Assembly: GCA_049997855.1 (NCBI GenBank)
Contig: JBEKSG010000001.1
Coordinates: 58,059 to 122,058, forward strand
Source: Minisyncoccia bacterium
GTDB lineage: Bacteria > Patescibacteriota > Minisyncoccia > Phycocordibacterales > SBAW01
DNA length: 64,000 bases
Direction: 5' to 3'
The notes under the pieces are model-generated. The model saw nothing but the letters and a program-made list of their open reading frames with translations, was not told the origin of the DNA and searched no databases. How positions within the stretch are numbered: the stretch's first letter is position 1; every line of letters begins with the position of its first letter. Shown piece after piece: positions 3,938-18,983 of this stretch. Both the position numbers and the translations under genes were made by a program.

Positions 3938-4369
3938 ATGAAGAAGGCCACGGTAGATTTAAAAGCGGCGCTTAAGGGAGCGGGGTTTAAAGCGACGCCT
4001 GGACGTTTACAGCTTTTGGAGCTTTTAGCTCACACCGATGAGCCTTTAAGCGTGCTCAAAATCCAAAAAAGGCTTGGTAAAAAGCTCAATGAAGTGACGC
4101 TATACCGCGCGCTCGAGGCTTTTACAGCAGCTGGTTTGGTACGCCGTGTCGACTTAGGCCACGACCACGCGCATTACGAGCTTGCACTCGGCCGTGCGCA
4201 TCACGACCATCTCGTGTGCACTAAATGCGGAGCGATAGAAGATATCGAAGGTTGTGCGCTTGTGCCGCTTCAAAAAAAGACACTCAAGCGGTCGCATTTT
4301 AAAAGCATTTACTCGCATAATTTGGAGTTTTTCGGCCTGTGCCGAGCATGCTCGAAGTACTATGAATAG
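3938..4369 (+). CDS. zur: Fur-family metalloregulator, likely zinc uptake regulator
   Basis: MKKATVDLKAALKGAGFKATPGRLQLLELL winged helix, HHDHLVCTKCG...E metal site; sits directly upstream of znuABC with ATGA overlap. Confidence 0.75.
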   Translation: MKKATVDLKAALKGAGFKATPGRLQLLELLAHTDEPLSVLKIQKRLGKKLNEVTLYRALEAFTAAGLVRRVDLGHDHAHYELALGRAHHDHLVCTKCGAIEDIEGCALVPLQKKTLKRSHFKSIYSHNLEFFGLCRACSKYYE

Positions 4370-5291
4370 AAACTGGCTTGTTGGAATCGTAGTCATTATT
4401 GTTCTCGTTACCGGCGGTTTTCTTATCTTTAGACGTGCCCCTGCGCCTAACGGCGGAGCGGCATCAAGTGGCGTTGTGCAAGTAGTTGCGGCGGAAAATT
4501 TTTGGGGCAGTATCGTATCGCAAATCGGCGGCGCGCACGTACAAGTTTTGAGTATCGTCTCAGACCCTAATGCCGACCCGCATGAGTACGAAAGCAATGC
4601 GAGCAACGCACGCGCGGTCTCTAATGCCGCTTATGTGATTGAAAACGGCGTCGGATACGACAGCTGGATGGACAAACTGTTATCCGCCGGTGGCAGCAAT
4701 CCCAACCGCAAAGTATTAAACGTGGGCCAGCTTGTCGGCAAACAGGAAGGCGACAATCCGCACCTCTGGTATAACCCTGTGTACGTCAACCAAGCCGCCG
4801 CGCAAATGGAGCAAGACTTAATCACAATTGACCCTTCCGACAAAGCGGATTTTGAGAAAAATTACCAAACATTGCAGTCCAACTTGGCTGAATACCAAAA
4901 CCGCATCGTTTCTATTAAGCAACAATATGCCGGCACCAACGTTGCCGCGACCGAAGATATTTTTGCTTATCTTGCCGCGGCAGCCGGGCTCAACCTCATC
5001 TCTCCTCCCGCATTCATTGAGGCAGTTGCCGAAGGCAATGACCCGCCTGCTCAAAGCGTCGTTGAGTTTGAAAATCAATTGAAAGCAAAAGAACCGGTAG
5101 TGCTTGTGTACAATGAACAAACAGTGACGCCTTTGACCGAGAACGTCAAAGCGCTCGCGGCGCAGGAGAATATTCCAGTCATCGGCGTTACCGAAACTAT
5201 CCAACCGCCGGATGCGACGTTCGAGGAATGGATGAACGCCGAGCTGATTGATCTGCAGAACGCTCTTAATGCAAACGTACTGGGACAATAA
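4362..5291 (+). CDS. znuA: Metal (zinc) ABC transporter substrate-binding protein, TroA/ZnuA family
   Basis: TM anchor then conserved SIVSDPNADPHEYE and TroA-like fold signature; operon context. Confidence 0.75.
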   Translation: MNRNWLVGIVVIIVLVTGGFLIFRRAPAPNGGAASSGVVQVVAAENFWGSIVSQIGGAHVQVLSIVSDPNADPHEYESNASNARAVSNAAYVIENGVGYDSWMDKLLSAGGSNPNRKVLNVGQLVGKQEGDNPHLWYNPVYVNQAAAQMEQDLITIDPSDKADFEKNYQTLQSNLAEYQNRIVSIKQQYAGTNVAATEDIFAYLAAAAGLNLISPPAFIEAVAEGNDPPAQSVVEFENQLKAKEPVVLVYNEQTVTPLTENVKALAAQENIPVIGVTETIQPPDATFEEWMNAELIDLQNALNANVLGQ

Positions 5292-5295
5292 CAAC

Positions 5296-6081
5296 ATGAA
5301 CGAACCAGTTATTACCGCAAAAAATTTAGCGGGAGGATATGCGAGTGTCCTCATATGGAAGAATGCAAGCTTCTCAATACATAAAGGTGAGTTTGTTGCG
5401 GTACTGGGGCCCAACGGCGCCGGCAAGACGACGCTGTTTCGACTTTTGCTTGGATTGGTTCAGCCTTTACAAGGCACTCTTTCCATTTTGGGTAGAAGTC
5501 CTACGCGCGGCAATCCGCGCATCGGCTACGTGCCCCAGCGTCATCACATAGACAGCGAAACAACCATCGAGGCTCTTGAGTTGGTGCGCCTCGGGGTTGA
5601 TGGCAATCATTGGGGTGTTGAAATCTCTGCCGATGCAAAAACGGAGGCTCTTGCCGCCCTTAAAACTGTTGGGGCGGAGGCATTAGCGCATCGACCGCTA
5701 GGCGCCCTCTCCGGCGGCGAGCTCCAGCGCATTTTCCTCGCTCAAGCATTAGTCGGCAAACCAGACCTGCTGTTGCTCGATGAGCCGCTTGCCAATCTCG
5801 ATATCCGCAGAGAGTCAAATTTTGTGCAGCTTATCAACAACGTCGTGCGCTCGCAAGGCGTTACGGTTTTGCTTATTGCACACAACATTAATCCGCTGTT
5901 CCCAGTGCTCGACCGCGTGATGTATGTGGCAAACGGCCATATCGCTACGGGCAAGCCGCATGAAGTGCTGACTTCCGAATCATTAAGCAAGCTGTACGAT
6001 ACACAGGTCGAAGTACTGCGAGACTCGCGCGGCAGGATAGCTATCGTCGGTACCGAAGAACCCGCGCACCACCATGAATAA
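5296..6081 (+). CDS. znuC: Metal ABC transporter ATP-binding protein
   Basis: Walker A GPNGAGKTT, signature LSGGELQR, Walker B LLLLDEP. Confidence 0.85.
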   Translation: MNEPVITAKNLAGGYASVLIWKNASFSIHKGEFVAVLGPNGAGKTTLFRLLLGLVQPLQGTLSILGRSPTRGNPRIGYVPQRHHIDSETTIEALELVRLGVDGNHWGVEISADAKTEALAALKTVGAEALAHRPLGALSGGELQRIFLAQALVGKPDLLLLDEPLANLDIRRESNFVQLINNVVRSQGVTVLLIAHNINPLFPVLDRVMYVANGHIATGKPHEVLTSESLSKLYDTQVEVLRDSRGRIAIVGTEEPAHHHE

Positions 6082-6919
6082 CGTAACGTTCAGCTTCAAC
6101 ATCATAGGCGATCTGCAAAACATGCTGCAGTACGATTTCATGTTGCATGCGTTTGAGGCGGGAACAATAGTTGCTATTGTCGCCGGTGTTGTCGGCTACT
6201 TCGTCGTATTGCGGCGCTCGTCGTTTGCGGCGCACGCACTTTCACACATCGGTTTTGCCGGAGCGGCAGGAGCCGTGCTTTTTGGCTTCAGTCCGCTTCT
6301 GGGGCTTTTGGCATTTACCACCGGAGGCGGCGTTGTTATGGCGACACTCGGTCGCAAAGCGGCAAGCCGCGATGTACAAATCGGGACAGTGTTGGCTTTT
6401 ATGCTCGGTCTCGGTGTTTTGTTTATCAGCCTGTACTCCGGCTACGCCACCGAAGCGTATTCGCTTCTTTTTGGCGAGATTTTGGGTATCAGCAGTACGG
6501 ATGTGCTGGTAACGCTTATCGCGGGGCTTATATTGCTTGCGGCAGTAGCCGTTTTGTATCGGCCACTGTTATTTACTTCGCTCGATGAAGATGTCGCTGA
6601 AGCAAAAGGGGTATCAATTTTCTGGCTTGGCGTTGCATTCATGATTTTGGTTGCAGTTGCAACCTCTATTGCGGTGCAGGTGGTGGGCGTACTGCTCATA
6701 TTTGCGCTCATGGTCACGCCCGCCGCTATAGCAGAGCGGATAGCTCGCCGCCCCGCTCAAGGCATAGCGATATCGATAGGCGTCGCCTTGCTTGCGACAT
6801 GGTTTGGGCTTTTTATTTCGTTTTATCTACCCTATCCGGTAAGCTTCTTTATCACGACTATAACATTTGCTATGTATCTCATAGTGCGTTTTTACAGAGG
6901 TTATTTTTACAGAGGTTAA
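6074..6919 (+). CDS. znuB: Metal ABC transporter permease (ABC-3 family)
   Basis: Polytopic membrane protein overlapping znuC stop. C-terminal RFYRGYFYRG is encoded by a 14-nt tandem duplication, and the stop lies inside the REP element. Confidence 0.75.
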   Translation: MNNVTFSFNIIGDLQNMLQYDFMLHAFEAGTIVAIVAGVVGYFVVLRRSSFAAHALSHIGFAGAAGAVLFGFSPLLGLLAFTTGGGVVMATLGRKAASRDVQIGTVLAFMLGLGVLFISLYSGYATEAYSLLFGEILGISSTDVLVTLIAGLILLAAVAVLYRPLLFTSLDEDVAEAKGVSIFWLGVAFMILVAVATSIAVQVVGVLLIFALMVTPAAIAERIARRPAQGIAISIGVALLATWFGLFISFYLPYPVSFFITTITFAMYLIVRFYRGYFYRG

Positions 6920-6956
6920 ACCTTCGTTACAACTTACGAAGGTTTAACCTCCGTAG
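6911..6956. repeat. REP doublet (inverted pair GAGGTTAAACCTTCGT / ACGAAGGTTTAACCTCCGT) between znuB and pilB
   Basis: Same palindromic family as REPs at 12062-12106, 12792-12829, 13402-13420; also acts as a likely terminator hairpin. Confidence 0.7.
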
Positions 6957-6997
6957 AGACTAGACAGAGAAAGGCTTTTTGGTATAACGGGCGCACT

Positions 6998-8164
6998 ATG
7001 AAACTTGCCTCTGCTCTCGAGGTCAAAACAGCTGCGCCTGTACCTGAGCATGAAGCAAGGATATCCGTCATCGCATTGGTTGACGATATCCTTGCTGAGG
7101 CACACCGACTCGGCGCCTCCGACATACACATCGATCCGCTCCCGCACACGGTGCGCATGCGCCTGCGCGTTGACGGTGTCTTGCATGACACGCGCGAGTT
7201 TCCCAAAAATATCCATCCCGAGGTGATAGCGCGCATCAAAGTGCTCTCGCGCCTCCGCACCGACGAGCATGCCGCCGGCCAGGACGGCCGCTTTCGTTTT
7301 GAAGTGCAAGGCGAGTGCGTCGACGTGCGCGTTTCTATTATGCCCACGTACCACGGCGAAAACGCGGTCTTGCGCTTGCTGTGCGCAAAAGCAAAACAAT
7401 ACTCGCTTGCCGACTTGGGTTTTACCTCGCGTAATCGGGAAAAAATAACGAATGCGATACAAAAACCCGGCGGCATGGTGCTCGCTACCGGCCCAACCGG
7501 GAGCGGCAAAACCACCACGCTCTATACGCTCTTAGATTTGCTTAACTCTAACGAGGTTTCCATCGTCACGATTGAAGACCCGATAGAATATGCCATCGAG
7601 GGTATTGAGCAAATCCAAGTTAATCCGCGCGCCGGGCTCGCATTTGCAAACGGATTGCGCTCAATGTTGCGCCAAGACCCCAACATCATCATGGTGGGCG
7701 AAATACGCGACGCCGAAACGGCGGCTATCGCGGTTAATACCGCGCTGACCGGACATCTTTTGCTCTCGACGCTCCACACCAACGACGCAGCCACGACACT
7801 CCCGCGCCTCCTCGATATGGGCATCGACGCCTATTTGGTGGCGTCGACCATCAATCTCGCTATAGGCCAGCGACTGGTGCGCAACATTTGTGCACACTGC
7901 AAACGGCGCATGCGTGACGGCTCATATAAAGGAACAGGATGCGACGAGTGCGGCGGGAGTGGTTACAAAGGGCGTGTGTGCATAAACGAGGTGCTCGTTG
8001 CGGACGAGCTCTTGCGCGAGGCCATCGTGCACAAAGCCTCTGCCGCGGAGCTCCGGAGCATTGCGATTGCAAACGGCATGGTTACCATGCAAGAAGATGG
8101 TTTTGCAAAAGCAAAAAACGGAGAAACAACACTTGAGGAAGTATTGCGCGTCGTCCGCGAATAA
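6998..8164 (+). CDS. Type IV pilus / type II secretion family assembly ATPase (PilB/GspE/ComGA-like, short form without N-terminal domains)
   Basis: Walker A GPTGSGKTT, Asp box, Walker B, His box, tetracysteine motif CAHC...CDECGGSGYKGR. Confidence 0.85.
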   Translation: MKLASALEVKTAAPVPEHEARISVIALVDDILAEAHRLGASDIHIDPLPHTVRMRLRVDGVLHDTREFPKNIHPEVIARIKVLSRLRTDEHAAGQDGRFRFEVQGECVDVRVSIMPTYHGENAVLRLLCAKAKQYSLADLGFTSRNREKITNAIQKPGGMVLATGPTGSGKTTTLYTLLDLLNSNEVSIVTIEDPIEYAIEGIEQIQVNPRAGLAFANGLRSMLRQDPNIIMVGEIRDAETAAIAVNTALTGHLLLSTLHTNDAATTLPRLLDMGIDAYLVASTINLAIGQRLVRNICAHCKRRMRDGSYKGTGCDECGGSGYKGRVCINEVLVADELLREAIVHKASAAELRSIAIANGMVTMQEDGFAKAKNGETTLEEVLRVVRE

Positions 8165-8169
8165 CCGGC

Positions 8170-9210
8170 ATGCATATGAAAGAACAAATTTTTTTATGCA
8201 AGCGCTTGGCCTATTTGATGAACGCCAATATTTCTTTGGTGGAGAGTCTCGAGATACTGCGCGCACAAGCAGGGGGGCGGAAGCCTCATGCGCTGTTTGA
8301 CCGGATGCTGATTGAAGTGCAAGAAGGGCGCGCGCTTTCGCAGGCCTTTAGCGCGTTTCCGCGTGTGTTTGGCGAATTTTGCGTTTCGATGATACAGGTG
8401 GGCGAGCGCAGCGGTACGCTCCCCGCCGCTCTCGAGCATGTGGCGGTCGAACTTGCAAAAAAGCAGCAGCTCCGTTCAAAAGTGTTGGGCGCTTTTATTT
8501 ATCCGGCAGTTATCGCCCTGGCAACACTCGGCATCACTGTCTTTTTGATGCTGTTTTTGTTTCCTAAAATAATGCCGATATTTAAAAGCCTCCACGCTGA
8601 GCTGCCGATGAGTACGCGCGTGGTGGTTGCCGCAAGTTCTTTTCTCTTGCACGATTGGCTCTTGTTATTGGCAGGCATCGCGCTTGTTGTGGCGGGAGGC
8701 GTTGTTGCGTATACGCGCAATGCGCGCGTGCGGCTCGCGTTTGAGCGCGCATTGCTCATGACGCCCGCGTTTGGCTCGATGCTCAAGAGCTACTATGTTT
8801 CAAACGCAAGCCGCATGCTCGGACTGCTTTTGCAAAGCGGTATGACGCTCCAGGATGCGGTGGTTGTCGCAGCGGAGGCGACCCGCAATCTGGTGTACAA
8901 GCGCGAGCTTGTGGCGCTTAGTGCGGTGGTAGCGCGCGGCGAGTTGTTATCAACTCATCTAGCCGCGCGCGCCGCATACTTCCCGCCGCTCTGTTCGCAC
9001 ATGGTAGCGGTGGGCGAGCGGAGCGGGACGCTCCCCGAAGCGCTCGGTTATGTGGCCGACCTTTACGGCGGCGAGGTCGACGAGCGCGCCAAAATACTCT
9101 CCGCGCTTGTCGAGCCGGTGCTCATGGTGTGCATGGGGCTCCTGGTTGGATTTATTGCTGTCTCCATCATCACTCCTATTTATGGCATCACGCAAAATCT
9201 CCATACCTAA
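8170..9210 (+). CDS. Type IV pilus inner-membrane platform protein (PilC/GspF family)
   Basis: Two GspF repeats with GERSGTL motif twice (VGERSGTLPAALEHV; VGERSGTLPEALGYV). Confidence 0.85.
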   Translation: MHMKEQIFLCKRLAYLMNANISLVESLEILRAQAGGRKPHALFDRMLIEVQEGRALSQAFSAFPRVFGEFCVSMIQVGERSGTLPAALEHVAVELAKKQQLRSKVLGAFIYPAVIALATLGITVFLMLFLFPKIMPIFKSLHAELPMSTRVVVAASSFLLHDWLLLLAGIALVVAGGVVAYTRNARVRLAFERALLMTPAFGSMLKSYYVSNASRMLGLLLQSGMTLQDAVVVAAEATRNLVYKRELVALSAVVARGELLSTHLAARAAYFPPLCSHMVAVGERSGTLPEALGYVADLYGGEVDERAKILSALVEPVLMVCMGLLVGFIAVSIITPIYGITQNLHT

Positions 9211-9667
9211 CAAACACGTGCGCGGATTTACACTCATTGAAGTGCTCGTGGTGCTGGGGATGTTCGCATTAGTTGGCGGATGTTCGCTCGTGATAGGTAT
9301 GGAAAGTTATCGGAGCGGTTCTCTCGCCGATGATCAGGCGTCGCTTGTCTCCGCGCTCCAAGAGGCAAGGAGCCAGGCCATAAGTGCCGTGTGCATCGGC
9401 AGTGCTTGCACGGCCGGGATGCCGCACGGCGTGCATATTACCCGGAAGCAGTTAGTGATTTTTCAAGGCGCTATATATAACGTCAACGACGACACCAATG
9501 ACTATATCCCTCTGCAAGACGCCGCACTTGCGACAAGCGGTTTGAACGACGTGGTATTTGCCGAATATTCGGGCGATGCAAACCCGCCCGGAGATATCGT
9601 CATGTCTGACGGAGCGGAACGTGTTGCCACAACCTCGATAGGCGCCGACGGGCAAATAGTATGGTAG
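9182..9667 (+). CDS. Prepilin-type N-terminal cleavage/methylation domain protein (minor pilin/pseudopilin)
   Basis: Leader MASRKISIPNKHVRG then FTLIEVLVVLG (class III signal, Glu+5). Start chosen inside the longer ORF 9050..9667 because that ORF overlaps pilC out of frame. Confidence 0.65.
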   Translation: MASRKISIPNKHVRGFTLIEVLVVLGMFALVGGCSLVIGMESYRSGSLADDQASLVSALQEARSQAISAVCIGSACTAGMPHGVHITRKQLVIFQGAIYNVNDDTNDYIPLQDAALATSGLNDVVFAEYSGDANPPGDIVMSDGAERVATTSIGADGQIVW

Positions 9668-11115
9668 CGCAAAAGGGTTTTTCGACGGTAGAGATGCTGG
9701 TAGCCATGACTCTCATGCTGCTCACGCTCGCGGCCGCGCTGCTCCTCTCTTTTGGAAGCCAATCATTGCTTGCGGACAGTGCCGGCAATACCGAGGCGCT
9801 TTCGCTGGCAGATGAGATACTCGGCAACGAGGAGGCGCTTGCGCGCAAAGATTTTAATTTAGTAGTCCCGACCACCGCCATCGCAACAATTGGCTCAACC
9901 GCCTACACCGAGTCGGTCGCTGTTCTGACACAAAACAACTCCTTAACTAAAAAAGTGACCGTCGCCGTGTCGTGGACGGGCGAGTACGGCCGCGCCGAGC
10001 AGGTGTCGCTCGGCACGTATGTCACCGACTTTGAAAATGCATTCTCGAGCGATACATGCGATACCGATCTTTCGGGTAACTGGATGGCTCCTATCGTGGC
10101 GAACGCAGTGCAAAACTTCGCGCAGCTCGCGGATGACGCCTCCGGCACGTACACGCTCACCGATGTAAAAGCTCGCCAAGGCAAGCTGTATGTCACCGCA
10201 AGCAACAGCTCGTCCGGTAAAGAAACTTTTTTTATTTTTACTCTTGCAAACAATATTCCGACTTTATTATCAAAGCTCGACAACGACGCCAAGCACAACA
10301 CCGGCCTCGCGGCGGTCGCGCTCTCAAACAATTACGCGTATGTCGCCGGTGCGCTTTCAAGCGACCAGCTCCAAATAATCGACATTAGCAATCCGAGCAA
10401 TCTGGCAAGCTCGAGCATTGTCGCGACCTATAAAATCCCCGCAAGCGATGTCCCCAATGCAGGCGCCGGCAACGCTATTTTTTATAAAAACGGTTATGTA
10501 TATCTCGGCCTCGTCGCGAGCGGCGGCGGCGAGTTTAACATCATCGACGTGCGCAATCCGCAAAGCCCCGAGTGGGTGGGGAGCTACAACGTCGGTAATG
10601 CGGTCAACGGCATATATATAGAAGGCTCGTACGCCTATCTCGCCAGCCCCAACGCGCGCAATCTTATCGTGCTCGACATCAGCAATCCGGCGAATCCGCT
10701 CTTGGTGGGTTCGTATACTCCTGCCACGAGCGCCAACGGCGAGCGAGTTCTCGCACTGGGCGACACCGTATATCTCGGCCGCACGTACGGCACCAACGAA
10801 CTCTATGCGTTAAACGCGACCGCGCCCGCTTCCATTGTGCCGCTTGGTTTTAAAGATTTGGGTGTGGGGAGCAATACCAGCATCAACGGCATGGTGTTGC
10901 GCTCGAACATCGCTTTTTTGCTCACCAACAAACAGCTCGTGAGTTACGACATGAGCAACCCGGCGGCTATCTCTGCATACGGTGCGCCGCTTGTGCTCCC
11001 AAACGCCACATCCGGCGCGGCGCTTGCGTGCGACGGCAACACACTCTTTGCGGCGGCTAACGACGCAAGCACTAACGGTCACGGCTACCTGTATGTGATA
11101 CAACCCGGCGTATGA
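9661..11115 (+). CDS. Pseudopilin-like protein fused to an LVIVD-repeat beta-propeller domain (candidate pilus tip adhesin)
   Basis: N-terminus KGFSTVEMLVAMTL (prepilin-like), followed by at least 4 repeats of the LxIIDISNP...VGSY type (LVIVD repeat). Confidence 0.6.
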   Translation: MVAQKGFSTVEMLVAMTLMLLTLAAALLLSFGSQSLLADSAGNTEALSLADEILGNEEALARKDFNLVVPTTAIATIGSTAYTESVAVLTQNNSLTKKVTVAVSWTGEYGRAEQVSLGTYVTDFENAFSSDTCDTDLSGNWMAPIVANAVQNFAQLADDASGTYTLTDVKARQGKLYVTASNSSSGKETFFIFTLANNIPTLLSKLDNDAKHNTGLAAVALSNNYAYVAGALSSDQLQIIDISNPSNLASSSIVATYKIPASDVPNAGAGNAIFYKNGYVYLGLVASGGGEFNIIDVRNPQSPEWVGSYNVGNAVNGIYIEGSYAYLASPNARNLIVLDISNPANPLLVGSYTPATSANGERVLALGDTVYLGRTYGTNELYALNATAPASIVPLGFKDLGVGSNTSINGMVLRSNIAFLLTNKQLVSYDMSNPAAISAYGAPLVLPNATSGAALACDGNTLFAAANDASTNGHGYLYVIQPGV

Positions 11116-11621
11116 ATAAAAAAATAACACAAGGATTTATCCGTCATGACGCCGGGTTTACGCTTATCGAAGTGATTATGTATCTCGCGCTTTTTAGCAT
11201 ACTGATGGCGGGCTCGCTCTCGGCTGCTTTTGCGCTGTGCGAGAGCAGCGGACACGAGCGCACGCGCGCGTTGTTGCTTGAGGAAGGCAATTTTATTATC
11301 GCCAAAACGGAGTGGGAACTTTCGGGCGCAGAACTTGTCACCGATCCAAGCGTCGGCAACTCCGGCGCGACGCTTTCGATTGAAAGGGTGTCGGGATACG
11401 ACAACACCGGCGCTCCTGTAACAAACGCCGTAGTGTTCGATCCGTCAACATTGGTTGGCGGCGGAGTTTCGCTTGCCTCCGTGCGTTTTTACCACGCCGC
11501 TGATTCGGGTATCGGTGCCAATCCCGAGAGCGTTGGCATAAGCTTTACGCTTGCTATGCGCACCGAGCAAGGTGCGCTGATGAGCCAAAGTTTTTTTAGC
11601 ACAACGACGCTTAAAAAATGA
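11112..11621 (+). CDS. Prepilin-type minor pilin/pseudopilin
   Basis: AGFTLIEVIMYLALFSIL N-terminal methylation motif. Confidence 0.7.
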   Translation: MNKKITQGFIRHDAGFTLIEVIMYLALFSILMAGSLSAAFALCESSGHERTRALLLEEGNFIIAKTEWELSGAELVTDPSVGNSGATLSIERVSGYDNTGAPVTNAVVFDPSTLVGGGVSLASVRFYHAADSGIGANPESVGISFTLAMRTEQGALMSQSFFSTTTLKK

Positions 11622-12058
11622 CTATGAAAAAACGGGGATTTATCGCGCTCATGTCCGTCATCATACTCTCGGCTGTCTTGCTCGGGATGGCAGCCACCGC
11701 GAGTACCGCGGGATTTTTTGCGCGGTTTAGCGCGCTCGATAAGGAGTATAAAAAAAGCGCGCTTGGGCTTGCCGACTCGTGCGCTAATGTCGCCCTTCTT
11801 ACTCTCGCGCAAAATTACGCATATACGCCCACTCTGCCTGTCGTGGTGTCGCTTGACAGCGACACATGCACCATACAATCAATAACCAACCTCGGCGCGC
11901 CCTCCGCCTCCTCGCGCACGGTGCTTATTACCGCTACAGCCAGTTATCGGGAGGCGTTTAGCGCAGTCGAGGTAAACGCCACGGCAGCAAACCCCGCTAG
12001 TAGTGCCTCTCCGGTCGCCTATCCCATAATCATTAACTCCTGGCGAGAAATCAACTAA
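11618..12058 (+). CDS. Pilus-associated small protein with N-terminal hydrophobic anchor (PilX-like minor pilin candidate)
   Basis: KRGFIALMSVIILSAVLLGMA N-terminus without Glu+5; operon position among pseudopilins. Confidence 0.4.
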   Translation: MTMKKRGFIALMSVIILSAVLLGMAATASTAGFFARFSALDKEYKKSALGLADSCANVALLTLAQNYAYTPTLPVVVSLDSDTCTIQSITNLGAPSASSRTVLITATASYREAFSAVEVNATAANPASSASPVAYPIIINSWREIN

Positions 12059-12061
12059 TAT

Positions 12062-12106
12062 ACGGAGGTTAAACCTTCGTTTAATGTACGGAGGTTAAAC
12101 CTCCGT
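12062..12106. repeat. REP doublet (ACGGAGGTTAAACCTTCGT + ACGGAGGTTAAACCTCCGT, direct) flanking the RAYT 3' end
   Basis: 19-bp perfect palindrome ACGGAGGTT-A-AACCTCCGT seen directly. Confidence 0.75.
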
Positions 12107-12761
12107 TTTCTCCGTAGGAAAGCCATTCTTTGAGACTATGTCTAAAATCTAACGCGGTTTCAAAATACTTTGGCAGCGTTGTTTTATTGAGAATGTTACC
12201 TTCTATACGTTTTGTGCCAATATAATCGGGATAACTTGAGTACGGATATTTTTTGAGATATGTTTCCGCTCTATTTTTGTCGGCAATGCCAGTCTCTTTC
12301 CATGCCGGTTCGATTAATTTTACCGGGTTTAAATGGATATAAGAAATAAGGTAAGAGAGATAGCGATCTTCACTAACGTGCGATGATTTGTATGTCCCTT
12401 GGAAGAGTGCACCTGAGTGTTTATATTTTTTATTAAAGTACATCGTGTAAGCTGTCGTCAGTTTCTGCATAAACTTGCTTATGCCCCCGTCTGCTTTTTC
12501 GTGCACAAGCAAATGAAAATGATTTGGCATTAAACAATAGACGCCAATATCTGTCAGGGTCTCTCCGCGCTCAACCATGTGGGCTTTTTCAAGCGTTTGA
12601 CCCTGCGCTCTGGTATCCGTTGAAATACTGCTATTACAGAGATAGAGAAGTGATATAAAACGATCATAATCTATTTGGGAGGTAAAAATGTCCCTTTTTT
12701 CGACGCCGCGATTGTATAAGTGGTAAAACTCTCCTGGTGCAAAGACGCTTTTTCGTGCCAT
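12081..12761 (-). CDS. REP-associated tyrosine transposase (RAYT; IS200/IS605-like Y1 HUH transposase)
   Basis: YHLYNRG, HUH motif NHFHLLVHE, C-terminal Tyr region. Gene bracketed by REP palindromes on both sides; the last residues GGLTSVH are encoded by the REP itself. Confidence 0.75.
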   Translation of the reverse strand: MARKSVFAPGEFYHLYNRGVEKRDIFTSQIDYDRFISLLYLCNSSISTDTRAQGQTLEKAHMVERGETLTDIGVYCLMPNHFHLLVHEKADGGISKFMQKLTTAYTMYFNKKYKHSGALFQGTYKSSHVSEDRYLSYLISYIHLNPVKLIEPAWKETGIADKNRAETYLKKYPYSSYPDYIGTKRIEGNILNKTTLPKYFETALDFRHSLKEWLSYGENGGLTSVH

Positions 12762-12791
12762 GGCGGCACTATACCAATCTGAAAAAAATAC

Positions 12792-12829
12792 ACAAAGGTT
12801 TAACCTTTGTACGGAGGTTAAACCTCCGT
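12792..12829. repeat. REP doublet (ACAAAGGTTTAACCTTTGT variant + ACGGAGGTTAAACCTCCGT) flanking the RAYT 5' end
   Basis: Direct sequence observation. Confidence 0.75.
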
Positions 12830-12877
12830 AACTTACGTGGGGCTTTACAAAGCTTGGAGTTTTGGTAGAGTCCCCGC

Positions 12878-13393
12878 ATGCAAACTATAAAGGACATTAT
12901 AAAGGACATTTTTTATAAAGGACAGAAAAAAACAGAAGTAGCAAAAGGTTTTACGCTTATCGAGATTTTGGTCGTTATTGGCATCATCGCCATTTTGGCG
13001 GCTATTGTGATAGTTGCCGTCAATCCTGCCCGCCAATTTGCCGAGGCGCGCAATAGTCAACGCCAAAGCAACGTTGAGTCTATCCTCAACGCGGTAGGGC
13101 AAAATATTGCCGACAATAAAGGGGTTTTTATCTGTGCGGCGGGCACACTCCCTCCAATTGCCACTACGATAGAAAGCACCGGCGGCTACGACTTGCGCGG
13201 ATGCATCGTGCCAACCTACATGGCCGAGATACCGGTTGACCCGTCAATCGGCACCATCTCAAGCGACGGCAGCACCTACAACACCGGCTATACCATCATG
13301 CAAAGCGCCTCAACCGCGCGCATCACGGTGTGCGCGCCCGGCGGCGCCGAGCCTGCAATCCAAGGGAGTGCCGCCATTTGCGTTACGCGATAA
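12878..13393 (+). CDS. Type IV major pilin (PilA-like)
   Basis: KGFTLIEILVVIGIIAILAAIVIVAVNP classical type IV pilin N-terminal helix, 24-aa basic leader, C-terminal Cys pair (CAAG...C, C...C). Confidence 0.75.
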   Translation: MQTIKDIIKDIFYKGQKKTEVAKGFTLIEILVVIGIIAILAAIVIVAVNPARQFAEARNSQRQSNVESILNAVGQNIADNKGVFICAAGTLPPIATTIESTGGYDLRGCIVPTYMAEIPVDPSIGTISSDGSTYNTGYTIMQSASTARITVCAPGGAEPAIQGSAAICVTR

Positions 13394-13401
13394 GTTCAAT
13401 T

Positions 13402-13420
13402 ACGGAGGTTTAACCTCCGT
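13402..13420. repeat. Single REP palindrome ACGGAGGTTTAACCTCCGT just after the pilin stop
   Basis: Direct sequence observation. Confidence 0.7.
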
Positions 13421-13515
13421 AAATTGATTCACCCGACCCTTCATCTGGTATTTAGTCAAGCTTGCTCACTGTTATAATAGTGCGGTATGTTTGAGCGGTA
13501 AGACAAGAGGGCGGT

Positions 13516-15357
13516 TTGACCGATTTATTAAATTATTTTAATAGTATGAATATCCAACGCACCGGCTCGACGTTTGTTTCCGGAATTCTTTTAGGTCTCG
13601 CTCTGTTTGTAGGTATTTCTTCTGCAGCGCAACCGGCTCCAGTTAAAGCACAATCTGTGCCGCTTGGCAGTCAGATTGTGTGTTTTGTTTTTACTAGTCT
13701 CAACATGTTTGGTCAGCCTATTCCGCCTCTGAGCACCAGTGATTGTCCGAGTGCGCCATCATACGGCACAGGCACACTTACAGTTATGAAAGTTGTTGTG
13801 GGAGGCACTGCAGTATCTTCTGGTTTTAGTATTCATGTTAAAAGTGGAGGTACTGATATCTCATACAGCCCGCAGCCGGGCTCAGTAACCGGGACCTCAT
13901 ATATCAGCCTTACGCCGGACAATTACACGGTGAGCGAAACAGGAGGGCCAGCCAACTACATCGGCGTCTTTAGTGGTGATTGCAACCCAAGCGGGATTGT
14001 ATCCGTGGCATCAAGTAGTATTCCTGCCGTGTGCACCATCACTAACACCTACACCGGATCGAGCGGAGGTGGGGGAGGCACGGCAAGCACGTCCGACCTC
14101 TCGATCAGTAAAACGGTCAGCACAAGTACTCCTAACGAGGGACAGACCATTACCTACACGCTTACGGTACACAACATCGGTCCCGATACGGCGCAGCATG
14201 TTTCGGTTACTGATATGCTCCCGGCAGGCCTCACTTATGTTTCCGATGACAGCGGGGGTACCTATACTCCAAGCACAGGAATCTGGCTTGTAGGTACAGT
14301 GACAACCCTGGCAAACGCTTTGCTCCATATCGTTGCCACAGTGGGCAATACCACAAATACTATTACCAACACAGCCAACATCGCTGCCGCCAGCAGCACC
14401 GACCCGGTAAGCACCAACAACACGGCACAGGTGAGCATTACGCCAGTAGCTCCCTCAAGCGGTGGCGGAGGCGGCGGCGGTGGAAGTGGCGGAAGTGGAA
14501 CCACCACCTCGGATGTAGCTATCACCAAAACAGTCGACAACAGCACGCCCAATATTGGCGGCACTGTCACCTACACAATCACTGCAAGCGATAGCGGGGT
14601 AGACGCAAGCGGCGTGGTAGTGCAGGACATTCTGCCCAGCGGGCTTACCTTTGTCTCAACCAGCACTGCCGACACGGTGGGTGTGTACAACCCGACCACG
14701 GGCAACTGGACTATAGGCGCTCTGAGCAGCACGACTCCTGCCGTGCTCCATATTATGGCTACCGTAAACAGCAGTTTGGACAACGGCACGGTTATCACCA
14801 ACACAGCTGCGGTGACCAGTGGCGATACTTCCTCGGATAGCGCAAACAACTCATCTTCGGCGCCGGTAACCGTTACTATCCCCGTTACGCCAACTAATAC
14901 CACTGGTGGTGGCGGAGGCGGTGGAGGTGGCGGGGGGGGCGGCGGTGGTGGAATTATCTCTGGTCCGCTCTCATACGGATACGGCGGAGGAGGAGGATAC
15001 CTAACACCGGGCTTGGTGCTCGGTACTTCTACCCAACAAGGAACATCGTGCGGTACATACCTCACCAGCTATTTGCGCATGGGCAGACCAAACGATGCCG
15101 GACAGGTTAAAAAACTGCAGACCTTCCTCAATACTTATGCCGGCGCAAAACTCCCGGTTACCGGCTTCTTTGGCAAGCTTACCGATGCGGCTGTGCGCAA
15201 GTTCCAGACGCAATATACCGCAGACGTGCTCACGCCGTGGATACCATACGGTCTTCCCGTTAACGAGACCACCGGCTACGTGTACAAGACAACGCAGCGC
15301 AAAATTAATCTTATTATGTGCAGCGCTCTCAACCTTCCGATGCCAAGGCTCCCTTAG
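13516..15357 (+). CDS. Large secreted cell-surface protein: DUF11-like conserved repeat domains separated by poly-Gly linkers, C-terminal peptidoglycan-binding (PG_binding_1-like) domain
   Basis: Signal peptide; two repeats LSISKTVSTSTPNEGQTITYTLTVHNIGPD.../ITKTVDNSTPNIGGTVTYTITASDSG... (DUF11 style); G8-G16 linkers; C-terminus RMGRPNDAGQVKKLQTFLN...GFFGKLTDAAVRKFQ. Confidence 0.65.
   Translation: MTDLLNYFNSMNIQRTGSTFVSGILLGLALFVGISSAAQPAPVKAQSVPLGSQIVCFVFTSLNMFGQPIPPLSTSDCPSAPSYGTGTLTVMKVVVGGTAVSSGFSIHVKSGGTDISYSPQPGSVTGTSYISLTPDNYTVSETGGPANYIGVFSGDCNPSGIVSVASSSIPAVCTITNTYTGSSGGGGGTASTSDLSISKTVSTSTPNEGQTITYTLTVHNIGPDTAQHVSVTDMLPAGLTYVSDDSGGTYTPSTGIWLVGTVTTLANALLHIVATVGNTTNTITNTANIAAASSTDPVSTNNTAQVSITPVAPSSGGGGGGGGSGGSGTTTSDVAITKTVDNSTPNIGGTVTYTITASDSGVDASGVVVQDILPSGLTFVSTSTADTVGVYNPTTGNWTIGALSSTTPAVLHIMATVNSSLDNGTVITNTAAVTSGDTSSDSANNSSSAPVTVTIPVTPTNTTGGGGGGGGGGGGGGGGIISGPLSYGYGGGGGYLTPGLVLGTSTQQGTSCGTYLTSYLRMGRPNDAGQVKKLQTFLNTYAGAKLPVTGFFGKLTDAAVRKFQTQYTADVLTPWIPYGLPVNETTGYVYKTTQRKINLIMCSALNLPMPRLP
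14932..14939 (+). repeat. G8 homopolymer inside the poly-Gly linker coding region of ORF 13516..15357
   Basis: cggggggggc seen directly; a potential slipped-strand site. Confidence 0.5.
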
Positions 15358-15976: not shown

Positions 15977-16648
15977 ATGAACAAACTTATTGCAGTGGCA
16001 ACAGGACTCGCGATGCTCGCAATGGCATCTCCGGCGTTCGCATCGGTCAACAGCAGCTCGATTACCATCTTGAACACGAACTCGGGTTACATCAGCAACA
16101 CCACTTCTGCAGTGGCACAAACCGGCGGCAATACCGCAGGCGGAAGCAATGCAGGGCATGGTGGCAATGGTGGCAGTATCGTTGCTGCCGGTAGCGGCAC
16201 TGACAACAACGGCGGTGCGACAGCCGGCAATGCCGGCAATGGAGGCAGCTCCAGCGCAGGCGGCACGGTCTCTTCGGGTGCTGCAACGTCGGACTCAGGC
16301 TCGGCAAACGCACTCAACAGCAATGTTGTTACGGTTAGCGGAGGCACCCTGAATAGTTCCTCGGCAACAGTGGAAAACAGCAATACCGGTAGTTATATTT
16401 CGGACGGCACCACTGCAGGCGCTCAAACAGGCGGCAATCATGCGCACGGTAGCAATGCTGGCAACGCTGGCAATGCCGGAAGCGTCGGTTCGAACGGCGG
16501 TAGCGGCAACAACGGCGGCGCGACGAGCGGCAATAGCGGCAGCGGCGGCAATAGCGGCACGGGCGGCTATGTTGCGACTGGCGCTTCGAGCGCAACTTCG
16601 GGCAGCATCAACGTGATGAACACGAACATCATTCGCACGCACTTCTAA
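15977..16648 (+). CDS. Secreted Gly/Asn/Ser/Thr-rich repeat protein (paralogous repeat family shared with 19151..22378 and 22424..22939)
   Basis: Signal peptide MNKLIAVATGLAMLAMASPAFA; repeats of the type TGGNTAGGS...ALNSNVVTV / SINVMNTNII. Confidence 0.55.
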   Translation: MNKLIAVATGLAMLAMASPAFASVNSSSITILNTNSGYISNTTSAVAQTGGNTAGGSNAGHGGNGGSIVAAGSGTDNNGGATAGNAGNGGSSSAGGTVSSGAATSDSGSANALNSNVVTVSGGTLNSSSATVENSNTGSYISDGTTAGAQTGGNHAHGSNAGNAGNAGSVGSNGGSGNNGGATSGNSGSGGNSGTGGYVATGASSATSGSINVMNTNIIRTHF

Positions 16649-16793: not shown

Positions 16794-18983
16794 ATGATAA
16801 AAATTATGAAAAAACTCCTTACCAGCATCGCGACCATAGCGGCGGCTACGTTGTTTCTCGCCTCGGCGGGGCTTGCGTCAGCGTCATCTGTTGTCCCTGT
16901 GTACAACTTACAGCCGAGCTGGACAGCAGTCGGCGGTGTGGGCGTCTGGGCCGCGTATTACGCGCCTGATTCACAAGTCAGTTCTGGCATATCACCAGGA
17001 ACGACAGCAATCTACGATGGACGTGCGGCTGGCGTCATTAAGGCCGGTATTACCGCAGAACCGTCTGGGCCAAACGCAGGACACTACATGGATGAAGGTC
17101 TCCTAGGCTTTCAAGTGCCGAATGTAAGCCTCTCTTCATTCGCTTCGCAGACGCTCACATATGACGTCGATAAACAGACAGGCACAAACCCAGTGTGGGT
17201 ACGTATCAGACTGACAGATACAAATCAAACTGAATACCAGTTCATACCAACCACTAATCCCGCAGGCTGGCACACGGTTGACGCCGCTGCCGGGCAATGG
17301 CAGTTAATGGATGCCAATGGCGATGGCACTGGCCCAATGATGACACTTGCGCAGGTCGCTGCGGCCAATCCCGGGTTGGCGGTAGACCGCGTCTACTTGA
17401 CGTTGGGTATGGGCGATTCGTACAACGTAAGTCCCGGTGTCGGGACCGAAGCGTGGGTTGATACAGTCACAGTCGGCGGGACGACATATGATTTTGCACT
17501 TTCAGCGGTCACTGTCACGATAGATAAATTTATCGATGGGCACATGGCAACGGCGGCGAGCGCGAATAATTCCGCGTTCCCGATGGTTTCATCATGGACA
17601 AACGCTCCCAGTTACGGCAGTGGCAATTACGATCTCGGAACAGATGATTCATATCAAGCTGTTACGTCATCCATGAACGGAGGTGCGAGCTACACGACCA
17701 ATGAAGTAACCGCTCCATCTTCTGTCGTTGGCACAGACTGTACGACAGGAGATCCGTACGCACTCGTCGGTTATTCCTCCGGTCCGGATCTTACAACTGC
17801 AGAGGCGGCGACCCAGAGCCTGACACCTCCAAACTTCACTACTCTCACTCAAAATGAAGTGGTAATCGTCTGGAACAAGGAATGCCTCGCAGCCCCGACT
17901 CCGCTCGCTCCAGCAAATGGCACCATAACAACGACCGCAGGCTTTACCTCGGTGAGTTGGAATTCGGTAACGGATCAGGCCGGCGGCATCACGTATGTCT
18001 ACCAATCCTCTAATTCTTCGGCCACGAAACCTGATGGTTCGTTCGTGACACCGGCATACACCTCTGGATCCCTAACCGCAACGAACATCCCGACATCCGG
18101 AACTCCGGCAGGCACTTACTACTGGCACGTGCAGGCGAAAGATGCCGATGGCAACGTCAGCCCATGGAGTACGATGTGGTCGGTTACAGTCATCAACACT
18201 CCCGCAGTGATCACCAATCCTGCCACTAACGTGACTGCAACTGATGCAACACTCAACGGTGTCAATGAGGGGAACGGTGCTGGCGGACACTCGTTCTGGG
18301 TTTCGCTTGCTCCGTTCGTCACTACGAGCCCGACCATTCCGGCTGGCGTTTATTCCACGCCTGTTCTTCCGGGCGTTGCGGCGAACACGGCATTTTCTGA
18401 TCCTCTTTCGCTGGTTACCACGAACGGTATTCCAGGTAACATGCCCGCAATAACGCCAAGCACGAAGTACTACTACGCAGCATGGGCTTACATCGGTGGC
18501 ACCTGGTATCCGGGCGCAGTCTTAAACTTCACCACCCTCGCCGCACCAGTCCTCCTTCCGACTCCGGTCAATGCGTGTTCTAACCTCACGAGCCCTCCTG
18601 CAAACTACGTGCTGAAGAACGGCGTGGCGGGCAACGGCACATACGCACTTGCGCCATACACAATGTTCGTTGGCAAAGCCGGTAATTACACCGTGACCGG
18701 CTCCGGCGGGGATTACATCATCTGTCTCCCCAACGGAAACGGTACGGTCAATCTCGGCTACGGCAACGATACGGTCGTGACCGGCAACGGCAATCAGAAC
18801 ATCACGGTCGGCGCGGGCAATAGCGTCATCACGACCGGCAATGGCAACAGCAAGATTACCGCAGGCGCGGGCAATGACACCATCACCGTCGGCAATGGCA
18901 ACAATACAATCATCGCAGGCGGAGGCGCGAGCATTTGCCATGTCGGCAAAGGTCTCAATTCCATCACCGGCTGCACGCACTAG
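16794..18983 (+). CDS. Large secreted protein with FN3-like domains and C-terminal Gly/Asn-rich beta-roll-like repeats (GNGNxxITxGxGN)
   Basis: Signal peptide; FN3-like segment PAGTYYWHVQAKDADGNVSPWS; C-terminal GNDTVVTGNGNQNITVGAGNSVITTGNGNSKITAGAGNDTITVGNGNNTIIAGGGAS. Confidence 0.5.
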   Translation: MIKIMKKLLTSIATIAAATLFLASAGLASASSVVPVYNLQPSWTAVGGVGVWAAYYAPDSQVSSGISPGTTAIYDGRAAGVIKAGITAEPSGPNAGHYMDEGLLGFQVPNVSLSSFASQTLTYDVDKQTGTNPVWVRIRLTDTNQTEYQFIPTTNPAGWHTVDAAAGQWQLMDANGDGTGPMMTLAQVAAANPGLAVDRVYLTLGMGDSYNVSPGVGTEAWVDTVTVGGTTYDFALSAVTVTIDKFIDGHMATAASANNSAFPMVSSWTNAPSYGSGNYDLGTDDSYQAVTSSMNGGASYTTNEVTAPSSVVGTDCTTGDPYALVGYSSGPDLTTAEAATQSLTPPNFTTLTQNEVVIVWNKECLAAPTPLAPANGTITTTAGFTSVSWNSVTDQAGGITYVYQSSNSSATKPDGSFVTPAYTSGSLTATNIPTSGTPAGTYYWHVQAKDADGNVSPWSTMWSVTVINTPAVITNPATNVTATDATLNGVNEGNGAGGHSFWVSLAPFVTTSPTIPAGVYSTPVLPGVAANTAFSDPLSLVTTNGIPGNMPAITPSTKYYYAAWAYIGGTWYPGAVLNFTTLAAPVLLPTPVNACSNLTSPPANYVLKNGVAGNGTYALAPYTMFVGKAGNYTVTGSGGDYIICLPNGNGTVNLGYGNDTVVTGNGNQNITVGAGNSVITTGNGNSKITAGAGNDTITVGNGNNTIIAGGGASICHVGKGLNSITGCTH

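Follow-up and report, generated by a model that had tools for sequence, protein, structure and literature searches.

A probable REPtron-like cassette of a Y1 HUH transposase gene and short palindromes in a type IV pilus operon of Patescibacteria

The subject of this work is a gene flanked by short palindromes in a stretch of 64,000 nucleotides from a Minisyncoccia bacterium (contig JBEKSG010000001.1; the whole stretch is called the window here). A reading of the letters alone, the original prediction, had described it as a tyrosine transposase associated with repetitive extragenic palindromes (REPs), or RAYT, with flanking REP palindromes inside the type IV pilus operon. Our analysis suggests that it is likely a REPtron-like cassette, in which the gene of a class-2 (subclass 2.1-like) Y1 HUH endonuclease/transposase is combined with cognate short hairpin repeats. 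The original prediction held in that the protein is a Y1 HUH enzyme whose closest structure is an E. coli RAYT and in that the palindromes are tied to the gene family, but the cassette is not a canonical RAYT/REP system. The coordinates of the features are collected in Table 1.

The HUH (NHFHLL) and YHLYNRG motifs that had been read in the open reading frame (ORF) 12081..12761 were located at residues 80-85 (PNHFHLL, 79-85) and 13-19, respectively, and a third motif, SYIHLNPVK, at residues 140-148. These contain the HUH histidines H81 and H83 and the catalytic tyrosine Y141 (in YIHLNP), and an SS tail motif is found at S175/S176 (YSSY). The protein scored 42.6 bits against Pfam Y1_Tnp, above the cutoff of 23. 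A single-sequence phmmer search of the transposase against the PDB gave no match; the solved relatives came from a profile search and a fold search. With a profile of 27 sequences, the best solved relative was E. coli TnpA_REP (4ER8), in which PNHFHLL aligned on PEHMHCI and Y141 on Y115 of DYIYINPVK (residue numbers of 4ER8 are taken from the alignment coordinates), so that the catalytic tyrosine is present on alignment. An AlphaFold (AF2) model of the transposase had a predicted local distance difference test (pLDDT) score of 82 and a predicted template modelling (pTM) score of 0.83, and in a Foldseek search its top PDB match was 4er8_A (E 7.7e-6), with ISDra2, ISHp608 and Sulfolobus IS200-type TnpA ranking next. 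The model places the HUH motif on strand 82-88 and Y141 on helix 132-149. H81, H83, Y141 and S175/S176 are invariant among the 27 homologues, and because every family-invariant residue is present in the window gene, it appears intact and looks functional. Taken together, the fold and the motifs show that the product of the ORF is a Y1 HUH transposase.

Six copies of the 19-bp palindrome ACGGAGGTTWAACCTCCGT are present in the window at two or fewer mismatches, compared with 0.01 expected in shuffles, and a seventh at 12792, ACAAAGGTTTAACCTTTGT, differs from it by two compensated pair changes in the stem (ACAAAGG..CCTTTGT vs ACGGAGG..CCTCCGT). The seven copies make up four sites, namely three doublets (6909/6936, 12062/12088 and 12792/12811) and a single copy (13402), and only three of the seven (12088, 12811 and 13402) are the perfect 19-mer. 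Doublets do bracket the ORF on both sides as claimed, but they are not doublets of perfect palindromes: the left one consists of an imperfect and a perfect copy, and the right one of a variant and a perfect copy. When folded as single-stranded DNA (ssDNA), the 6909 doublet forms one long hairpin (-16.9 kcal/mol, z -6.7), as does the 12062 doublet (-15.9 kcal/mol, z -5.9), and the 12792/12811 doublet forms two adjacent hairpins; the z values of all doublets lie between -5 and -7. On the 5' side, the seven copies are preceded by TTT, CTT, ATAT, ATGT, ATAC, TTGT and AATT, with AC next in each. The palindromes match no curated RNA family, the only Rfam match at the gathering threshold being a tRNA, and a terminator scan did not flag the 12088 copy with the TTTT that follows it, so that termination of the upstream operon by this copy is not claimed.

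The copies are in part built into genes. The stop codon of the transposase gene (12081-12083) lies inside the spacer of the left doublet, and the perfect copy at 12088 encodes its C-terminal NGGLTSV; this palindrome-encoded tail (residues 219-226) has a pLDDT below 50 and is predicted to be disordered. The znuB-like ORF (6074..6919, ABC-3) receives its final codons AGA GGT and its TAA stop from the palindrome at 6909. The left half of this palindrome is partly copied in tandem (TTTTACAGAGGTTA x2), which accounts for the tail FYRGYFYRG of the ORF (window 6889-6919). Because the znuB orthologue of the related locus L101 ends in RFFKH and the doublet is absent from the L101 znuB-pilB junction, the znuB doublet is an insertion that rewrote the C-terminus. 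The original prediction had the palindrome encode the C-terminal residues and stop codons of three ORFs, which was about one-third right: it applies to znuB, the transposase gains residues from the palindrome but not its stop, and the ORF downstream of the pilin drops out. That ORF (13236..13427) was rejected as a gene, since it is an out-of-frame overlap with the pilin gene and is called in neither assembly; nor does a palindrome supply the stop of the pilin itself, which is at 13393 (Table 1).

The census of copies covered 81.5 kb of the source contig (JGI 3300037843 Ga0427918_0000214), from 8333 nt before the window to 9132 nt after it. No further palindrome was found in the rest of the window or in the 17.5 kb of adjoining contig, and no second RAYT gene was found in the 81.5 kb, which thus holds one gene copy. 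All solo palindromes lie within ~5.2 kb of the transposase gene and none in the other 75 kb; this clustering hints at local spread, with only two solo sites and hence not statistically firm.

We scanned 185,579 species genomes (596 Gb) other than the source genome for the exact 19-mer; only exact matches were counted, and the number of copies is therefore a lower bound. Fourteen loci were found, and ~4 would be expected by chance at equal base frequencies. Six of the fourteen are single matches in unrelated taxa, several of them within longer terminator-like palindromes, and were treated as chance. Four Patescibacteria genomes carry the exact 19-mer, on no more than 2-4 contigs per genome, three of them with matches on two or three contigs each. 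The motif is not confined to the window: the 19-mer, together with the fused form of the right doublet, is present on three other contigs of a close relative (genome CAYWJX01), and in two other Patescibacteria, homologues 56% and 52% identical to the transposase have the identical 19-mer on both sides (L009, L011). Separately, the exact 19-mer was seen inside long ORFs (280-299 aa) of two low-GC Patescibacteria genomes (L007 2185, L010 2364 and L012 2334), which could be in-frame palindrome insertions in other genes.

The transposase belongs to a large family, with at least 8000 proteins in a word-indexed search, whose matches were ~60% identical and bore the names Minisyncoccia, Kaiserbacteria, Taylorbacteria and Yanofskybacteria. 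In an exhaustive search, with clusters formed at 50% identity, 437 were obtained at E<=1e-30 and 6921 at E<=1e-10. We analyzed the flanks of 80 metagenome loci of this family, 70 of which had enough flanking sequence. Most of the 80 have one and the same palindrome twice, 30-55 nt upstream of the start and again at the stop or just past it. The palindromes differ from locus to locus (for example TACAAGGTTCAACCTTGTA, ACATAGGCGAGGCCTATGT, GGAGGACCGTCCTCC and TACGGAGGCAACGCCTCCGTA), most keeping an AGG...CCT core. A palindromic word of at least 12 nt was shared between the 120 nt upstream and the stop region at 58 of the 70 loci, whereas the control, in which the upstream region was compared with the gene interior, gave 1 of 70. 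In one frame, the 3' palindrome is read as a protein tail, NGGLTSV in the window gene and LQGETL, QGSTL or similar in homologues. Because the flanks co-vary and the 19-mer is identical across proteins that are ~45% diverged, these comparisons support the view that palindrome and enzyme are a cognate pair.

At 26 of 76 loci, a third copy of the palindrome lies within the ORF itself, at nt 150-199 (residues ~52-57) and upstream of the HUH motif, with almost none elsewhere in the ORF. These loci include L009, L018, L019, L021, L022, L024, L026, L032, L035, L036, L039, L042, L053, L074, L077, L084 and L089. The internal copy is always in one reading frame, and the loop peptide that it encodes (QGSTL, IGLPY, RGLAS, GGLTS, EGLTF or QGGAL) co-varies with the flanking palindrome. 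In the predicted model, this position corresponds to a coil between helix 29-42 and strand 70-77. The window gene retains the peptide QGQTL at 12591-12605 and has lost the palindrome (CAGGGTCAAACGCTT); in some homologues the loop is deleted. These observations lead us to propose, tentatively and at somewhat less than even chances, a Patescibacteria-wide family of subclass-2.1-like genes, each interlocked with its own co-evolving hairpin as part of its promoter, as a translated tail and, in about one-third, as an internal copy that sets the peptide of a surface loop, which would make it a self-referential element.

The upstream palindrome also touches promoter-like sequences. When 64 loci were aligned on the ATG, a conserved TAtAaT box was found at -12..-7 and no Shine-Dalgarno sequence; because of this combination, the alignment implies leaderless transcripts of these genes across the family. 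In homologues, the palindrome either abuts the TAtAaT box (...CCTCCGTGTATAAT...) or provides a TTGACA at -35, and in the window the -35 position of the transposase gene coincides with the right arm of the 12792 palindrome. The right doublet is placed between this putative promoter and a divergent promoter-like element of the pilin gene, which lies in a segment conserved in the relatives L105 and L099. Because this element is kept and the pilin ORF is intact, the pilin is probably transcribed on its own, and any disruption of the operon by the cassette is probably mild, since the pilin keeps its own promoter-like element.

The gene order in the window is Fur-ZnuABC-PilB-PilC, four prepilin-type/LVIVD genes, the cassette and the major pilin; PilB, PilC and N_methyl proteins are thus encoded upstream of the cassette, and the transposase gene is antisense to the pilus genes. 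As had been predicted, the gene separates the major pilin from the pseudopilin and assembly genes, with the ends of the two blocks on either side of it (Table 1). In the relatives L097 and L098, whose LVIVD protein is 85% identical, the last minor gene and the pilin are separated by an 18-nt spacer, and L101 (LVIVD protein 65% identical) has an 18-nt spacer at the cassette site as well; window 12059-12946 has no counterpart in L097. The site is thus without the cassette in three related genomes, and by comparison with them the cassette is an insertion into the pilus operon, in agreement with the original prediction. In the relative L105, a cassette with an 87% identical RAYT and the same palindrome doublets, including the fused form of the right one, lies at exactly the same site, and the flanking host DNA is ~80% identical. 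Because L105 has an 87% identical gene at the same site although it is ~20% diverged in flanking DNA, the comparison indicates that the insertion is old and inherited: the cassette entered an ancestor of these lineages and has persisted vertically under purifying selection, and it is not a recent hop.

In L099 (LVIVD protein 87% identical), the closest of the relatives that lack the cassette, another insert of 395 nt occupies the site (12363-12757), with a terminator-like hairpin and a 57-aa hydrophobic minus-strand ORF. A half palindrome, ACCTCCG, is retained there, as is a short stretch similar to the 5' region of the RAYT gene, which suggests that L099 lost the cassette secondarily. The insert may have replaced the cassette or be what a deletion of it left, in which case the site would be a hot spot for insertions. 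L097 belongs to the genome CAYWJX01, whose pilus operon has neither the 19-mer nor the doublets found elsewhere in that genome; therefore, solo doublets turn over between close relatives. The assembly GCA_964459335.1 (L004, L006, L014 and L097) is titled 'Candidatus Saccharibacteria', its pilus operon DNA is 82% identical to the window, and NCBI names the window proteins Minisyncoccia; of these two taxonomic labels, one is probably in error.

We compared the cassette with known systems. It resembles the REPtron of E. coli TnpA_REP (RAYT, YafM; 4ER8) in the HUH/Y1 fold, in the HUH and Y---NP motifs, in having cognate hairpin repeats on both sides of the gene, some as inverted doublets, and in a gene that is single-copy locally. 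In contrast to E. coli TnpA_REP, to which it is ~13% identical, the window protein has ~80 extra C-terminal residues with the SS motif; its hairpins are short, near-perfect 19-bp palindromes in a handful of copies, not hundreds, and translation of the 3' hairpin gives the protein its tail. Among TnpA-Y1 proteins, Y---NP is the class 2 signature and Y---Q that of IS200 (subclass 1.1) (PMC6006769 Table 1), and YIHLNP of the window protein is Y---NP. Subclass 2.1 (Quentin et al. 2018, PMC6006769), which includes TIRYTs, equals RAYT group 1 (Bertels et al. 2017, PMC5581495). The window protein shares with the second variant of this subclass NH[YF]H (NHFH), FQ (ALFQG), Y[IV]HLNP (YIHLNP) and the SS tail, as well as its size (226 aa vs a median of 238 aa). 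Gene copy number, one in the 81.5 kb of contig covered, would also fit the low number of the subclass, and there are signs of horizontal spread in both. The transposase thus matches subclass 2.1/group 1, an assignment made by motifs only. However, subclass 2.1 was reported without REP-like sequences near the gene, some members having GGGG[AT][CG]A[CG] terminal inverted repeats (PMC6006769), whereas clear cognate palindromes flank the window gene and the homologous loci counted above; no GGGGWSAS repeat was seen at the cassette ends. The family also recalls subclass 2.4 (Quentin et al. 2018, PMC6006769), in which REPs lie in-frame inside tnpA_REP, but here the internal copy is upstream of the HUH motif and always in one frame, in a different subclass. 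Patescibacteria are mentioned in neither classification (PMC5581495, PMC6006769), and a literature search on RAYT or REP together with Patescibacteria or candidate phyla radiation (CPR) found nothing relevant and no description of the family. Such a family in Patescibacteria is apparently undescribed.

Several results weigh against the REPtron-like reading. Canonical REPs carry at the hairpin foot a 5' tetranucleotide, GT[AG]G (or CGTC), and occur in more than 100 copies per genome, mostly extragenic. None of the seven hairpins in the window has a GT[AG]G (GTAG/GTGG) foot. The original prediction had proposed a count of the motif and of its positions relative to gene ends; copies do lie at the 3' ends of znuB, the RAYT gene and the pilin gene, but there are only seven in the 81.5 kb, all clustered within 6909-13420 (6.5 kb). 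The exact 19-mer is on only three other contigs of CAYWJX01, so that large-scale REP proliferation is not seen. The protein scores 44.9 bits against the NCBIfam REP_Tyr_transpos equivalog, below the cutoff of 80. Furthermore, symmetric changes in a palindrome are also expected for the binding site of a dimeric protein on double-stranded DNA, and those between the window copies are no proof of a hairpin. Since it lacks the GT[AG]G foot and the high copy number and does not reach the equivalog cutoff, the cassette is not a canonical RAYT/REP system.

The best-surviving alternative, which we nevertheless consider improbable, is an autonomous IS200-type insertion sequence (IS), the palindromes being its subterminal hairpins and the solo palindromes decayed ends or derivatives like miniature inverted-repeat transposable elements (MITEs). 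The unit measures ~770 bp, carries a single Y1 gene and has subterminal hairpins at either end and a hairpin by the gene start, and in this it is like IS200 (IS200/IS605, TnpA-Y1 subclass 1.1; ~0.7-0.8 kb). The cassette is absent at the site from three related genomes, and group 1 RAYTs have been noted as the most IS-like (Bertels et al. 2017, PMC5581495). The GC content of the transposase gene is 0.40 (0.40-0.42 for the cassette), compared with ~0.55 in its neighbors. A hairpin with a T-run lies just upstream of the RAYT gene. IS200 itself has a hairpin and T-run just upstream of its gene. However, the protein has the class 2 signature and not Y---Q (PMC6006769 Table 1), the gene is single-copy in the contig examined, whereas IS200 has several near-identical copies in a genome, no tnpB is present, and the solo doublets are intact, conserved palindromes and not decayed ends. 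No relatives of the transposase were found in viral contigs, and relatives on plasmids were at most 36% identical. The retention of the cassette at one site in L105 argues for long vertical persistence; low GC as a sign of recent acquisition was dropped for the same reason, as the cassette stands at this site in the diverged lineage too, with equally low GC.

A second alternative, slightly less probable again, is an enzyme that has been domesticated and has ceased to move DNA; the palindromes would then be mainly host regulatory elements (terminators, insulators or promoter parts) that it maintains or regulates; autoregulation at its own promoter, with some influence on the divergent pilin promoter, is a possible variant. 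The overlap of the palindrome with the -35, or its contact with the -10, of the gene at many loci is consistent with this, as are the doublet between the two divergent promoter-like elements, the palindromes at gene 3' ends and the long vertical retention of the cassette. Against it, the presence of solo doublets differs between close relatives, pointing to ongoing turnover, and T-runs follow only some of the palindrome copies. A third reading, in which the palindromes have nothing to do with the ORF and are ordinary intrinsic terminators or repeats arisen by chance, might be suggested by the six stray exact matches in unrelated taxa, several in terminator-like palindromes; it is effectively refuted by the shuffle count, the identical 19-mer beside homologous genes in other genomes and the co-variation of flanks against its control, and is extremely improbable.

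Under the REPtron-like reading, the following sequence of events may be proposed. E. coli TnpA_REP and the TnpA of IS200/IS608 suggest by analogy that the enzyme would bind the 19-nt hairpin on ssDNA and would cut and rejoin the DNA beside it through Tyr141 and the metal site of H81/H83. It may have spread the hairpin doublets, giving rise to the solo sites, a doublet in the znuB tail and one copy behind the pilin gene, and the whole palindrome-gene-palindrome unit would have moved at least once. In an ancestor of the lineage, this unit would have landed, in antisense orientation, between the last minor-pilin-type gene and the major pilin gene, in their 18-nt spacer, and it has been inherited vertically under purifying selection since then. 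Because the 5' palindrome overlaps the putative promoter of the RAYT gene (with a probably leaderless transcript) and the 3' palindrome its last codons, substrate and gene would be physically interlocked.

Table 1. Features of the cassette and its surroundings in the window (positions are those of the window).
Feature	Position	Strand	Remarks
RAYT-like Y1 HUH transposase gene	12081..12761	minus	226 aa
Left (gene 3') doublet	12062..12106		12062-12080 ACGGAGGTTAAACCTTCGT (1 mismatch), 7-nt spacer, perfect copy 12088-12106
Right (gene 5') doublet	12792..12829		ACAAAGG variant ACAAAGGTTTAACCTTTGT 12792-12810 fused directly to perfect copy 12811-12829
Solo doublet, REPIN-like	6909..6954		inverted copies 6909-6927 and 6936-6954, 8-nt spacer; 3' end of znuB-like gene
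Solo perfect palindrome	13402..13420		8 nt past pilin stop; extended palindrome TTACGGAGGTTTAACCTCCGTAA = 13400-13422
Putative -10 box TATAGT of RAYT gene	12768..12773	minus	6 nt before ATG; TGG precedes (extended -10)
Pilin promoter-like element	12844..12871	plus	TTTACA-16-TAGAGT, upstream TG; right of cassette
Last gene of upstream pilus block	11618..12058	plus	146 aa; stop 3 nt before left doublet
Major pilin gene	12878..13393	plus	intact, N_methyl motif, ~90% identical to pilins of cassette-free relatives

Two further observations concern the genes around the pilus operon. The interval between Fur and PilB holds ZnuABC in the window (4254-6919) and in L101, and a single ZIP-family transporter in L097, L098 and L099 (6608-7359 in L097 and L099); on this comparison, the metal-uptake module is swapped at a fixed position between Fur and PilB. 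Downstream of the pilin, large and probably surface proteins are encoded at 13516-15357, 15977-16648 and 16794-18983, a set conserved in the relatives. One, a DUF11/CLIPPER-repeat protein, contains poly-Gly runs of up to ~16 G as well as a PG_binding_1 domain; another is a 223-aa Gly/Ser/Asn-rich protein and a third a 729-aa protein without a Pfam match.

To our knowledge, work on RAYTs and REPs so far has dealt almost only with Proteobacteria and a few other phyla. An association of enzyme and hairpin is now seen for a protein subclass that was reported to be REP-free, in the tiny, gene-dense genomes of Patescibacteria, and it bears on the domesticated versus mobile nature of such elements. 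The pattern in the family is of greater interest than the single locus. If the interlocked family that we tentatively propose is real, the substrate would be built into the promoter and the coding sequence of the enzyme, with autoregulation, self-excision or inactivation, and concerted evolution of enzyme and substrate as possible roles. The family provides a large natural set of enzyme/hairpin pairs for understanding the specificity of Y1 HUH enzymes, which is relevant to ssDNA editing tools. In the organism itself, the pilus operon has carried an antisense cassette beside the pilin promoter over a long evolutionary time, and, on the same tentative proposal, the enzyme could modulate pilin expression, the promoter-proximal doublet lying between the divergent RAYT and pilin promoters.

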